Part shown: positions 52,199-59,507 of the stretch, in pieces
Layout of the letters: each line of letters opens with the position of its first letter
Position numbering within the stretch: the first letter of the stretch is position 1
From: Giardia intestinalis
Lineage: Eukaryota
Assembly: GCA_000002435.2 (NCBI GenBank)
Contig: CM018792.1
Length of the DNA stretch: 64,000 nucleotides
Direction: 5' to 3' (one strand)
The notes under the pieces: model-generated
Told to the model about the DNA's origin: nothing
The model's input: the letters and a program-made list of their open reading frames with translations, nothing else
The model's database searches: none
Translations under genes and position numbers: made by a program

Positions 52199-53356
52199 AT
52201 GTTACTACCAGCTCTCTGCTTTTTGATGAGCGGCCTCGCCGCGCAACGCACTAAACAACCCGCGCCCAGCTGCCAGGTCGACAACTGCGAGCAGTGTAAC
52301 GCCGACAATGTCCACTGCGACCGGTGCGTCCCCAGCGACGACACAAAGTGCGAGCGGTGCAACGAGGGCTTCACGGTCAGCGACGACAAGACGGTGTGCA
52401 ACCAGAGCCCTGCGCAGTGCAATACTCCCAACTGTAAGACCTGTGACAACCCCAAAACAGACAACGAAATCTGCACTAAATGTAATGATGGCGACTACCT
52501 CACCCCTACAAACCAATGCGTACCTGACTGCACAGCCATCAGCGGATACTACGGAGATACTGACAAGAAGTGTAAGGCATGCAACCCTGAGTGCGCTGAG
52601 TGCGTTGGACCGGCCAACAATCAGTGCACGGCCTGTCCTGTTGGGAAAATGCTTCAGTATACAGATACTAATACTCCTGTCAATGGGGGCACGTGCATGG
52701 ACCAGTGCAGCGTGAGTTCTACAAACGATGGATGCGCAGAGTGTGGGGCTCAGATAGGAGGAACTGCATATTGCTCAAAGTGCAAGAACACTCAACAAGC
52801 CCCCTTGAACGGCAACTGTGCGGCCAGTTCACGAGTAGCCTTCTGTGCAACAATCACAAGTGGGGCCTGTACAAAATGCAATGAGGGTTACTTCCTCAAG
52901 GACGGCGGCTGCTATCAGACAGATAGACAGCCTGGTAAGCAGGTGTGTAGTAATGCACAGGGAGGCAATGGTAAGTGTCAGACATGTGCCAATGGCTTAG
53001 CAGCAAGTGATGGCAACTGTGCAGAATGTCATTCTACTTGTGCTACGTGCTCGACTGCAGATGCGGCTGACAAGTGCAAGACCTGTGCCACTGGGTATTA
53101 CAAGGAAAACGGTGACGATACCACTGCTGGGTTATGCAAGAAGTGCTCAGAGAAGATCTCTGGATGCAAGCAATGTGTGTCGTCATCTGGCAGTTCAGTC
53201 ATATGCTTAGAATCAGAAGTAGGCACTGGTGGAAGCGTCAACAAGAGCGGCCTCAGCACGGGGGCCATAGCCGGTATCTCTGTTGCTGTGATTGTTATTG
53301 TAGGTGGTCTTGTCGGATTCCTTTGCTGGTGGTTCCTCTGCCGCGGGAAGGCGTAG
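52199..53356 (+). CDS. Variant-specific surface protein (VSP).
   Basis: A signal peptide MLLPALCFLMSGLAA is followed by about 25 CXXC motifs and a GGCY motif (KDGGCYQTD). The C-terminal TM helix and invariant tail are GAIAGISVAVIVIVGGLVGFLCWWFLCRGKA. An alternative upstream ATG exists at 52154. Confidence 0.9.
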   Translation: MLLPALCFLMSGLAAQRTKQPAPSCQVDNCEQCNADNVHCDRCVPSDDTKCERCNEGFTVSDDKTVCNQSPAQCNTPNCKTCDNPKTDNEICTKCNDGDYLTPTNQCVPDCTAISGYYGDTDKKCKACNPECAECVGPANNQCTACPVGKMLQYTDTNTPVNGGTCMDQCSVSSTNDGCAECGAQIGGTAYCSKCKNTQQAPLNGNCAASSRVAFCATITSGACTKCNEGYFLKDGGCYQTDRQPGKQVCSNAQGGNGKCQTCANGLAASDGNCAECHSTCATCSTADAADKCKTCATGYYKENGDDTTAGLCKKCSEKISGCKQCVSSSGSSVICLESEVGTGGSVNKSGLSTGAIAGISVAVIVIVGGLVGFLCWWFLCRGKA

Positions 53357-53376
53357 ACTTAGCTGTGTACTTAGGT

Positions 53377-53383
53377 AGTAAAC
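53377..53383 (+). promoter_or_regulatory. VSP polyadenylation signal AGTAAAC within a conserved VSP 3' element.
   Basis: The sequence TAGacttagctgtgtacttaggtAGTAAACgcgt shares the block ggcgtagactta...gtagtaaacgcgt with the VSP pseudogene 3' end at 59486-59510. Confidence 0.7.
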
Positions 53384-54158
53384 GCGTTACTTTATGTAGC
53401 TCGTGTAGATGTGCTGCTGGAGCTATCTGAGCGCGATCCAGAGATCATGCGGGTAATCCTCGCTCTTTCCTGGCCGTCCGGAAACGATGGCTGGTCGTGG
53501 ATAATGTAACGAGGAGCTCCTCTCCAGTGATGCATCCAGAGCCCTGCGCGGTCCCCGGTCGGCCTCCAGGATCCGGCCTGCTTAGGGCCATACGAGCCGC
53601 GAGTGTGCCTCTCCTTGGCCTGCCGCCAGGATGAATGAAACTCAGGTCGTCCCTGCACTTCTTGACCTCCTCGCTGTGGTATCCATGCAGTTGCTGGATG
53701 ACACCCACGCCCACCGCCTTGCGTTTGTGTCGGGCTCTGCTCTGCTCTGGCCGCCGGGCTGGCCTGATCTCCAGCTTGCGTTGCACTCCCCGAGACACGG
53801 AGGCACAGGTACCGACGATTGCACTGGGCCCCTGGTCGTCCCTCTGCACCGGTGGAGAGGAGCCCCTGCTTGCTGTCTACAACCGCCCTCGGACTGGCCA
53901 AGAGTCGAACACGAGCTTATCCCGAGGCCTCCGAATGCACCGGAGACGGGCTCCGATGGCACAGCACTCGATGCGATTCTTCCTGCTTGCACCCTAACTG
54001 AGGCCTGTGCACTGAGAGGCCGGTGGCACCCACCCGCTGGGGGCAGGCCACGATCTGGTGGTCCGGAAGGCGCTTGCAAGGGGCTGGGCGTCAGTCCAGG
54101 GGATGATCCGGGCCCTAAGCATTCACTCTCTATGAGCTGCGGCCCGCCAGCCGCAGAG

Positions 54159-57380: not shown

Positions 57381-59492
57381 ATGTTCGGTAGACTTTTACT
57401 TGCTAGCGCTGTCTTGCAGCTAACATGGGCTGCATGTGAAGCAAATGGATTAGGTGGTGCTGGGAGCTGCAAGACGTGCGGAGCCACCATTGGTGGCAGT
57501 GAATATTGCAGTGAATGCAATGATGGGGCCAACTATGCTCCCGTAGATGGGATCTGTGCGAATGCTGGGCAAACGCCAGCTAGTACGCTTTGTCCGTAAC
57601 ATAGCGCCGGAAAATGCACACAATGTGGAAGCACCTCCTTTAAATACAAGGACGGCTGCTACCAACCCAACGACGGAAAGCCGGGGCAGAGCTTTTGCCT
57701 TGTGGCTAGTGGCTGAGTATGCACCGAGGCTGCTCCTGGATACTTTATCCCCACGGAAGTGGTAAATACTGAGCAATCCGTGGTTGCATGTAGTTATACG
57801 ACCGGAGTAGCAATAACAGCTGGCGGAAACACATACAAGGGCATTGCTGACTGCGCAGAGTGCGGCGCCCCTGACGCAACAGCCGGCGCTGAGGCCGGCA
57901 AGGTTGCAACGTGTACCAAGTGTGGAGTCAGTAAGTATCTCAAGGATAACGTGTGCGTAGATAAAGCCCAATGTAATTCTGGTAGCACTAATAAGTTCGT
58001 TGCAGTTGATGATTCTGAGAATGGCAACAAGTGTGCTTCTTGCAGTGATAGCCCTAATGGCGGCGTTGCTAATGTGACACCTGCACCTATCACTAGCAAT
58101 CTAAGAAGATCAAATGTATCAAGTGTACTGGTAACAACTATCTGAAAACCACAGGCGAAGACACATCATGTGTACAAAAAGACCAATGCAAAGACGGCTT
58201 CTTCCCCAAGGATGACAGCACCGACGGAATTGCCAATTGCGCCATGTGTGCCTTAGTTACTAGTCAATCAGGGGCTGCCCTCATTACATGCACCACTTAT
58301 GTAGTAGGATACAAACTTAGTGCTGATGAAACTAAGTGTGAAGCAGCAAGTAATTGCAAGACGCCTGGATGCAAGACATGCAATAACGAGGGCAAAGAGA
58401 ACGAGGTCTGCACAGAGTATGCTAGTGGAAACTATCTCACCCGGCGAGCCAGTGCATAGACAGCTGCAACAAGGTTGGGAATTACTACGGAGCAACGGAA
58501 GGAGCAAAGCAAACTTGCAAGAAGTGTGCTGTGTCCAACTGTAAGGCCTGTGATAATCAGGGGCAATGTCAAATATGCAAAGACGGATTTTACAAAAATG
58601 GTGATGCCTGCTCTCCGTGTCACGAAAGCTGCAAGACATGCAGTGCAGGTACTGCTAATGACTGCACTGAATGTCCCACTGGAAGAGCACTTAAGTACGA
58701 AAGTGATGGAGTCAAAGGCACCTGTGGAACTGGATGCACAACAGGCCAAAGTAGTGGTGCCCGTAAAACATGTGGGCTAACCATTGATGGAGCTAGCTAT
58801 TGTTCAGAGTGCGCCGCGGGGACAGAATATCCTCAGAATGGGGTCTGTACCTCAGCAACTGCTCGTGCCGCAGCCACTTGTAAGACCGGAAATGTTGTCA
58901 AGGGCGCATGCAGCTCATGCACCAATGGGTTTCTTCGTATAAACGGGGACTGTTATGAAACGACCAAGTTCCCTGGGAAGAGTGTCTGCACAACAGCACC
59001 AGGCGCTGATACTTGCACTTTGATGGCTTCAGGTTATTATATTGACGGTAGTATTAACCTTGTGGTTTGCTCTGATGGCTGTGCAAAGTGCACTACTTCA
59101 AGCACTTGCACGACATGCAAAGATGGGTATGCAAAAATCGGAAGCAGCCAAACATGTACAAAGTGTGATTCTAGCTGTGAAACATGCAACGGGCAGCTAC
59201 AACGTGTAAGGTATGTGCGACAGGATACTACAAGACTGTATTGGGAGAAGGCGCGTGCACATTCTGCGAAGGTAATAGCAATGGGGTCACTGGTATCAAT
59301 GGCTGCGTGAGCTGCGCTCCCCCGTCTGGCAACACTGGCCCTGTCCTCTGCTATCTCATGAAGGATAGCAGGAACACAAACAAGAGCGGCCTCTCCACGG
59401 GGGCTATCGCAGGCATCGTCGTTGCTGTTGTCATCGTCGAGGGGCTCGTCGGGTTCCTCTGCCGGTGGTTCCTCTGTCGAAGCAAGGCGTAG
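57381..59492 (+). pseudogene. VSP pseudogene, disrupted by in-frame stops and at least three frameshifts.
   Basis: The VSP signal peptide and CXXC modules are split across ORFs 57381-57599 (frame 0, TAA stop), 57600-58145, 58244-58459 (frame 2), 58531-59310 (frame 1) and 59184-59492 (frame 0). The last piece ends with the VSP TM helix plus ...[12 protein letters not shown], where CRSKA replaces the canonical CRGKA. The conserved 3' element and AGTAAAC signal are retained. Confidence 0.75.
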
Positions 59493-59500
59493 ACTTAAGT

Positions 59501-59507
59501 AGTAAAC
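59501..59507 (+). promoter_or_regulatory. AGTAAAC polyadenylation signal of the VSP pseudogene.
   Basis: The sequence TAGacttaagtAGTAAACgcgt is homologous to the intact VSP 3' end. Confidence 0.6.

Follow-up and report, generated by a model that had tools for sequence, protein, structure and literature searches.

Conserved motifs have been described at both ends of Giardia intestinalis VSP genes. The VSP initiator is PyAatgTT (PMC2996952), and initiators of the 'caatgtt' type are listed for VSPs in the supplement of a preprint (10.1101/2022.03.07.483299). An extended polyadenylation signal with the consensus ACTTAGGTAGT[AG]AA[CT]GC lies 0-15 nucleotides (nt) past VSP stop codons in WB and P15, as well as in the limited number of GS VSP genes that could be compared (PMC3091692). 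All 136 WB VSPs have this extended signal, and 323 of its 327 matches in the genome fall at VSPs or pseudo-VSPs (pVSPs); the general Giardia signal is AGURAA, with cleavage typically 13-15 nt downstream (10.1101/2022.03.07.483299). A plain signal is expected at non-VSP genes (PMC1762436). The WB reference holds 133 VSPs and 208 pseudo-VSPs (PMC7000408). Here we analyzed a 64,000-nt stretch of G. intestinalis DNA (hereafter the window) in which an intact VSP gene, a gene for a high cysteine membrane protein (HCMP), and a broken VSP copy follow one another. This cluster very probably is the VSP/HCMP/pseudo-VSP cluster annotated and published for WB chromosome 4, with the 3' element shared by its two VSP-type genes being the VSP-specific extended polyadenylation signal.

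The assignment to chromosome 4 was based on protein identity. Nine further open reading frames (ORFs) of the window are exact matches of consecutive WB chromosome-4 proteins (KAE8304351-KAE8304371), and with the VSP and the HCMP the 100% identities span accessions KAE8304351-KAE8304377. Two neighboring chromosome-4 entries of the 2010 VSP catalogue, vsp118 and vsp117, also agree with ORFs of the window. Public annotation and published or preprinted tables already contain the genes, the pseudogene boundaries, the CRSKA tail, the 3' motif of either gene, and the duplicated layout of the locus. As a discovery the cluster carries little weight. Its use is mainly as a calibration: a reading of the raw sequence recovered a real, annotated feature set, and the features observed in this way are accurate, far above chance.

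The broken copy, GL50803_0097820, aligned end to end with full-length VSPs once conceptually translated. In a multiple alignment its conceptual product had identities of 72% with TSP752, 70% with a P15 'VSP with INR', and 67% with a WB chromosome-2 'VSP with INR' (71, 67, and 64%, respectively, by BLASTP), and its fragments matched the Pfam VSP family with E=2e-92 and 7e-45. The reading frame passes 0 -> 2 -> 1 -> 0, and in tblastn the alignments to three intact VSPs are interrupted at 58073, 58441, and 59193. The sequence-only reading had described a VSP copy with at least three frameshifts, in-frame stops, and a CRSKA tail; three -1 shifts and three in-frame stops were found. At three positions where all six intact relatives have Cys, the copy has another residue (Tyr at 58298 and 58418, Arg at 58762), and 12 codons present in the relatives as DSSAGNKCLPCN are deleted near 58220. 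The tail also departs from that of VSPs. It has GAG (Glu) within the membrane span at 59439-59441, Trp to Arg at 59463-59465 (RW for WW), and Gly to Ser at 59481-59483, which gives CRSKA, and its block is one codon short. Measured against a 17-residue consensus built from 138 VSP tails, it shows three departures; among 141 tails compared in register, only 2 reach this level.

Given that the three stops and three -1 shifts leave no uninterrupted ORF, the broken copy was filed as a pseudo-VSP and not as a VSP. It is VSP-like, lacks an intact ORF, and carries the extended signal, as in the pseudo-VSP class (Xu 2020; Rodriguez-Walker 2022). The preprint supplement has GL50803_0097820 as a pVSP of 2112 nt, and the roughly 380 residues per frame that it displays agree with the three-frame translation obtained here (10.1101/2022.03.07.483299). 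The 2010 catalogue entry vsp117 (GL50803_97820) is a 102-amino-acid (aa) protein with the alternative tail CRSKA, 9 Cys, and 3 CXXC (PMC2996952). It corresponds to a 102-aa ORF at 59184-59492, which makes up the last 102 codons of the pseudo-VSP. This entry, called 'complete' with 'no Inr' in 2010, is therefore a terminal fragment, and the true start at 57381 does have CAATGTT.

The lesions could in principle be errors in the assembly of an intact VSP gene, for instance homopolymer errors of long reads. Two of the three shifts do lie in short homopolymers (CCC and GGG, against CCCC and GGGG implied by homologs), and the PacBio reads underlying the WB reference have known homopolymer errors that Illumina data corrected in part (PMC7000408). 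The three in-frame stops are, however, substitutions and not indels, and lesions of the substitution type alone break the gene. The replaced cysteines, the 12-codon deletion, and the Glu, Arg, and Ser changes in the tail speak in the same direction. The Sanger-era assembly already had the 102-aa terminal ORF, which exists only if the frame is broken upstream, so data from that period also argue against sequencing error. The duplicate GL50803_00d97820 has the same length and the same 3' motif, and its approximately 380 residues per frame displayed in the preprint supplement are identical, with the same stops and the same first two frame switches (10.1101/2022.03.07.483299). Both RefSeq and the preprint list the locus as a 2112-nt pVSP. 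We consider assembly error extremely improbable: the frameshifts are real and the pseudogene status is right. The pseudo-VSP would be a former full-length gene of the 'VSP with INR' type, of approximately 704-716 codons, disabled by point mutations and single-base deletions.

We examined the 3' element shared by the intact and the broken gene, which the sequence-only reading had put at about 25 nt. It is indeed present at both: GGCGTAGACTTA and GTAGTAAACGCGT occur exactly twice each in the 64 kb, on both occasions at the ends of the intact VSP and pseudo-VSP frames, where 0.59 matches would be expected by chance for a 13-mer with up to two mismatches. The first seven bases of the 25 nt are the last coding GGCG and the stop codon TAG, and the non-coding part reads ACTTA(G/A)GTAGTAAACGCGT. 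An extended signal was scored when it lay 0-15 nt past the stop, and a hexamer when it lay up to 28 nt past it. At the intact VSP the order is stop codon, ACTTAGCTGTGT, and then ACTTAGGTAGTAAACGCGT; the signal begins 12 nt past the stop, matches the consensus at 17 of 17 positions (53369-53385), and fits ACUUAGRUAGURAAYRY as well. At the pseudo-VSP the non-coding part, ACTTAAGTAGTAAACGCGT, starts directly past the stop and matches at 16 of 17 positions, with A for G at 59498. The motif table of the preprint gives TACTTAGGTAGTAAACGCGT for GL50803_00113024, the intact VSP, and GACTTAAGTAGTAAACGCGT for both GL50803_0097820 and GL50803_00d97820. In that table GL50803_00113024 and its partner GL50803_0050225 have the motif at offset 15-34, as do two other entries (10.1101/2022.03.07.483299). 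The AGTAAA core would lead to cleavage and polyadenylation some 13-15 nt further on, so that the predicted 3' untranslated regions (UTRs) measure roughly 40 nt in the intact VSP and roughly 28 nt in the pseudo-VSP. The flanking ACTTAGGT...CGC is a family signature, carried along with the conserved block of about 114 nt that encodes the membrane span and CRGKA.

A different role for the element, mainly as a microRNA target through which miR2-type translational repression acts on VSP mRNAs, was weighed against a processing signal. Saraiya and Wang predicted a site for miR2 (CAGCCUAAUCACCGCCCCUAUAGUCC) in 22 VSPs, covering 30 nt made up of the last 20 coding and the first 10 UTR nt, with the seed in the UTR, and saw 35-40% repression of a reporter with six miR2 sites (PMC2583053). 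TTAGG, the complement of the miR2 seed CCUAA, is part of ACTTAGGTAGT and occurs in the intact VSP at 53371-53375, inside the span of about 50 nt from the stop over which a seed complement was scored. In the pseudo-VSP, by contrast, the single substitution in the signal removes the seed match (TTAAG). At the 3' ends of the two genes RNAduplex gave energies of -17.3 and -19.5 kcal/mol, values near the 20th and 10th percentiles of 100-nt windows across the stretch; the threshold of Saraiya and Wang was -20 kcal/mol, set with a different program (miRanda). The predicted targets comprise only 22 VSPs, whereas the motif is present in all 136, and the motif includes a canonical AGTAAA whose distance from the stop is the usual one. 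A primary role as a miR2 target thus appears unlikely. miR2 may be an extra regulatory layer for some VSPs, and nothing marks out this locus in that respect.

Beyond the shared element, the two VSP-type genes have little in common. Outside the 3' block their protein identity is 31-50%, in patches only (tblastn). Within the conserved 3' block (117 versus 114 nt), 24 of 114 nt differ (79% identity), and the differing codons are synonymous in 14 cases and non-synonymous in five. Similarity begins abruptly at AACAAGAGCGGCCTC and stops right past GTAGTAAACGCGT. The idea of recent mutual copies, or of a birth-and-death pair, was considered and is ruled out by the patchy protein identity and by the modest nucleotide identity even in the block. 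Since the genes are alike only in a block that is conserved family-wide, the shared element is a family signature and not a sign of recent common origin. The proposal of recent birth and death therefore stands in part: duplication and decay are general in VSPs, the pseudogene status is borne out, and the locus is duplicated, but the two genes are not copies of each other. Aligning the two 3' regions, as had been suggested, gave a shared element that is evidence neither of relatedness nor of selection.

The sequence-only reading had also proposed that the 3' element was selectively retained while the coding region decayed. Among positions invariant in six intact relatives, 16 of 203 were changed in the pseudo-VSP; in the same test with one sequence left out at a time, the four closest intact relatives had 1-13 changes. 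Decay at invariant coding positions is thus about 8% per residue, or about 3% per nt, which for a motif of 17-20 nt predicts approximately 0.6-0.7 changes. The signal has one change in 17 nt, close to what coding decay predicts, so that selective retention is not needed and this claim was not supported. The conserved tail of the pseudo-VSP is itself decaying alongside the signal. The 5' signal, CAATGTT, has been kept as well as the 3' signal, as expected for a young pseudogene. The initiator, the signal-peptide codons, and the polyadenylation signal would persist in the pseudo-VSP because too little time has passed for short motifs to decay, and retention of the polyadenylation motif is explicable without selection.

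Three points weigh against this account of the 3' element. The decay comparison turns on a single motif substitution and is compatible with weak constraint on the motif. Use of the signal at the intact VSP and at the pseudo-VSP is a prediction from family-wide data. In an episomal reporter, swapping 100-nt 3' regions left expression of the transfected VSP unchanged (10.1101/2022.03.07.483299), so that any role of the extended part of the motif over and above that of the core hexamer is putative.

The pseudo-VSP and its duplicate might instead have been kept because they are useful, either by donating sequence blocks to live VSPs through gene conversion or by supplying non-coding or antisense RNA that would silence VSPs. 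Similarity to relatives forms a mosaic, with 97% identity to TSP752 over residues 161-220 (57861-58040) and 48-60% in neighboring 60-residue windows, and a block shared in this way with TSP752 would fit a donor role. This pattern suggests segmental exchange among VSP genes, which is known in the family; mosaicism is general among VSPs, however, and does not identify the donor copy. The pseudo-VSP has also kept its initiator, start codon, signal-peptide codons, and polyadenylation signal, and pVSPs have been proposed as a sequence reservoir (10.1101/2022.03.07.483299). On the other side, constrained positions, including the invariant cysteines and the tail, decay at about the rate of the signal, which looks neutral. 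GL50803_0097820 does not occur among the rows examined of the preprint's expression table (10.1101/2022.03.07.483299), and we found no small-RNA record for it in the material consulted. We regard a maintained function of the pair as quite unlikely. Very unlikely, in our estimate, is a more specific form of this proposal, in which both identical full-length copies (GL50803_0097820 and d97820) would be transcribed and polyadenylated and would either supply nonsense RNAs to the Dicer/RdRP pathway proposed in VSP silencing or act as block donors, being functionally retained and not merely young. Neutral decay of a young pseudogene is preferred. Whether the approximately 200 Giardia pseudo-VSPs act, as a sequence reservoir or as regulatory RNA, is an interesting general question to which this locus gives no special handle. 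As a separate observation, a 43-residue run within 57861-58040 is identical to part of a 409-aa WB chromosome-4 VSP (P0151; compared by eye). Coordinates of the features are collected in Table 1.

Table 1. Features of the VSP/HCMP/pseudo-VSP cluster, in window coordinates. P numbers are handles for aligned relatives (P0122 is TSP752); a slash within a peptide marks the frame break.
Feature	Position	Strand	Basis
CAATGTT initiator/Kozak-like motif at the intact VSP start codon	52197..52203	+	read from sequence
Intact VSP GL50803_00113024 (vsp118, 'C5-S1')	52199..53356	+	ORF, Pfam, database identity, 2010 catalogue
Family-conserved 3' coding block of intact VSP (membrane span, CRGKA, stop)	53240..53356	+	direct repeats, alignment, codon comparison
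12-nt insertion/spacer ACTTAGCTGTGT, partial repeat of signal start	53357..53368	+	alignment
Extended signal of intact VSP, ACTTAGGTAGTAAACGC(GT); core AGTAAA 53377-53382	53369..53387	+	motif scan, published consensus
Ordinary polyadenylation hexamer AGTGAA(T), 31 nt past HCMP stop	54121..54127	-	motif scan
High cysteine membrane protein Group 1 (HCMP, renamed CRMP)	54159..56237	-	ORF and 100% database identity
CAATGTT initiator kept at the original pseudo-VSP start codon	57379..57385	+	read from sequence
Pseudo-VSP GL50803_0097820, 2112 nt, conceptual 704 aa	57381..59492	+	translation, tblastn, RefSeq, preprint supplement
In-frame stop TAA; Gln in P0122 and P0133	57597..57599	+	alignment
In-frame stop TGA; Gly in all six intact relatives	57714..57716	+	alignment
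Frameshift 1, -1 (GGVAN/CDTC), frame 0 to 2	58073	+	tblastn
In-frame stop TAG; Glu in P0122, P0123, P0124	58094..58096	+	alignment
Frameshift 2, -1 (NYLT/PASQC), CCC where homologs imply CCCC	58441	+	tblastn
Frameshift 3, -1 (ETCNG/AATTC), GGG where homologs imply GGGG	59193	+	tblastn
Decayed 3' coding block of pseudo-VSP, one codon shorter	59379..59492	+	codon comparison, tail consensus
Extended signal of pseudo-VSP, ACTTAAGTAGTAAACGC(GT); core AGTAAA 59501-59506	59493..59511	+	motif scan

The intact VSP with a CRGKA tail, as proposed from the raw sequence, was confirmed at 52199-53356 (+). It encodes a 385-aa protein with 49 Cys (12.7%), 17 CXXC, and 0 CXC, matches Pfam PF03302 (VSP) with E=6.7e-81, and is 100% identical to XP_001705644.2/KAE8304374.1 ('VSP', Giardia intestinalis WB clone C6). 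The hydrophobic N-terminal signal peptide, MLLPALCFLMSGLAA, was assigned by eye. The C terminus, ...GAIAGISVAVIVIVGGLVGFLCWWFLCRGKA, shows no departure from the 17-residue tail consensus outside one variable position. With CRGKA behind the conserved membrane span of about 25 residues, a Cys/CXXC-rich ectodomain, the extended signal, and the initiator, the gene belongs to the VSP class. In the 2010 catalogue vsp118 (C5-S1, L25653, GL50803_113024) is a protein of 400 aa with 49 Cys and 17 CXXC (PMC2996952). That model began at the upstream ATG at 52154 and was given 'no Inr', and the current RefSeq model begins at 52199, at a perfect CAATGTT followed by a typical signal peptide.

The HCMP gene lies tail-to-tail with the intact VSP, and the spacer between them is 802 nt. 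The convergent HCMP of the sequence-only reading is correct in kind and orientation, but its length is 692 aa and not 690. The protein has 78 Cys (11.3%), 21 CXXC, and 4 CXC, and its C-terminal part consists of one membrane span and a 27-aa cytoplasmic tail of basic and acidic residues (...RRRRGSKPISKKRAAAENVELMGTVDEF). Its Pfam VSP score, 23.7 bits, is under the 31.4-bit cut-off. Past the HCMP stop we found the plain hexamer AGTGAAT only and no extended VSP motif. CXXC together with CXC, no CRGKA, and no extended signal place the gene in the HCMP/CRMP class of type I membrane proteins. The HCMP 3' end (~54100-54200, -) gave a miR2 duplex of -26.6 kcal/mol, within the lowest 0.35% of 100-nt windows in the stretch; this end is GC-rich with a palindrome-like stretch, CGGCTGGCGGGCCGCAG, and the stability of the duplex may be a composition effect.

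The protein is 100% identical to both KAE8304375.1 and KAE8304377.1, and the two accessions indicate that a second identical copy exists. This fits the published account, in which a duplicated region contains two pseudo-VSPs and two HCMP/CRMPs and this locus is one of its sides (10.1101/2022.03.07.483299). GL50803_00113024 and GL50803_0050225 are 21,223 nt apart, with the duplicated pVSPs and CRMPs between them (10.1101/2022.03.07.483299). As the intact VSP points into that interval, the duplication is probably inverted, with one side held in the window. Long inverted repeats were absent from 47-64 kb and from 59.5-64 kb. No long repeat of the cluster genes lies inside the window, and the other side was accordingly placed beyond base 64000. 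The midpoint of the duplicated region would fall at about 63,970, near the window end.

The flanks of the cluster (47800-52100 and 59500-64000) have a GC content of 0.52-0.61, versus about 0.47 in the housekeeping part of the window, and contain no ORF longer than about 240 codons. VSP or HCMP remnants were not found in them: tblastn with eight cysteine-rich proteins matched the three known loci only, and ten flank ORFs gave no Pfam domains. VSP neighborhoods are described as gene-poor (PMC7000408), with which the flanks agree. One possibility is that they are retrotransposon relics. A full-length 5S rRNA gene (49394-49528, -; Rfam RF00001, 76 bits, E=2.5e-14) stands alone in the gene-poor stretch, about 2.7 kb upstream of the cluster. 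A tRNA-Val gene (anticodon TAC; 32039-32112, -) was identified by Rfam and ARAGORN between a Na+/H+ exchanger gene and GL50803_0024097. About 6 kb upstream of the cluster is the gene for the DHHC palmitoyltransferase KAE8304371.1 (44470-45870, +). In VSPs the Cys of CRGKA is palmitoylated (PMC2996952), and the closeness of this gene to the cluster is probably coincidental. The protein database groups the DHHC protein and the neighboring leucine carboxyl methyltransferase in a single 90% cluster, apparently because gene calls were fused or overlapped. Exact-protein look-ups with the VSP, the HCMP, the 102-aa terminal ORF, and their database twins returned no contig on record. Public short-read assemblies of the neighboring housekeeping genes extend only to about 45-50 kb, and such assemblies may break near the cluster.

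Set beside the published VSP family (PMC2996952; PMC3091692), the intact gene shares the signal peptide, the CXXC motifs, the membrane span, CRGKA, CAATGTT, and ACTTAGGTAGTAAACGC at most 15 nt from the stop. Nothing substantial differs, the one particular being that the motif stands behind the partial repeat ACTTAGCTGTGT. The HCMP gene agrees with the Group 1 HCMP/CRMP class in Cys content, CXXC and CXC, membrane span, longer tail, and AGTGAA, and no difference was found. With the miR2 sites described at VSP 3' ends (PMC2583053), the UTR of the intact VSP shares TTAGG, whereas the duplex energy is ordinary at both genes and the pseudo-VSP is without the seed match. GL50803_0097820 is itself listed among the WB pseudo-VSPs (PMC7000408; 10.1101/2022.03.07.483299), in three frames with internal stops, and has kept the extended signal as most pVSPs have. 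Most pVSPs are 5'-truncated members of arrays, whereas GL50803_0097820 is full length, with a start codon, an initiator, and signal-peptide codons.

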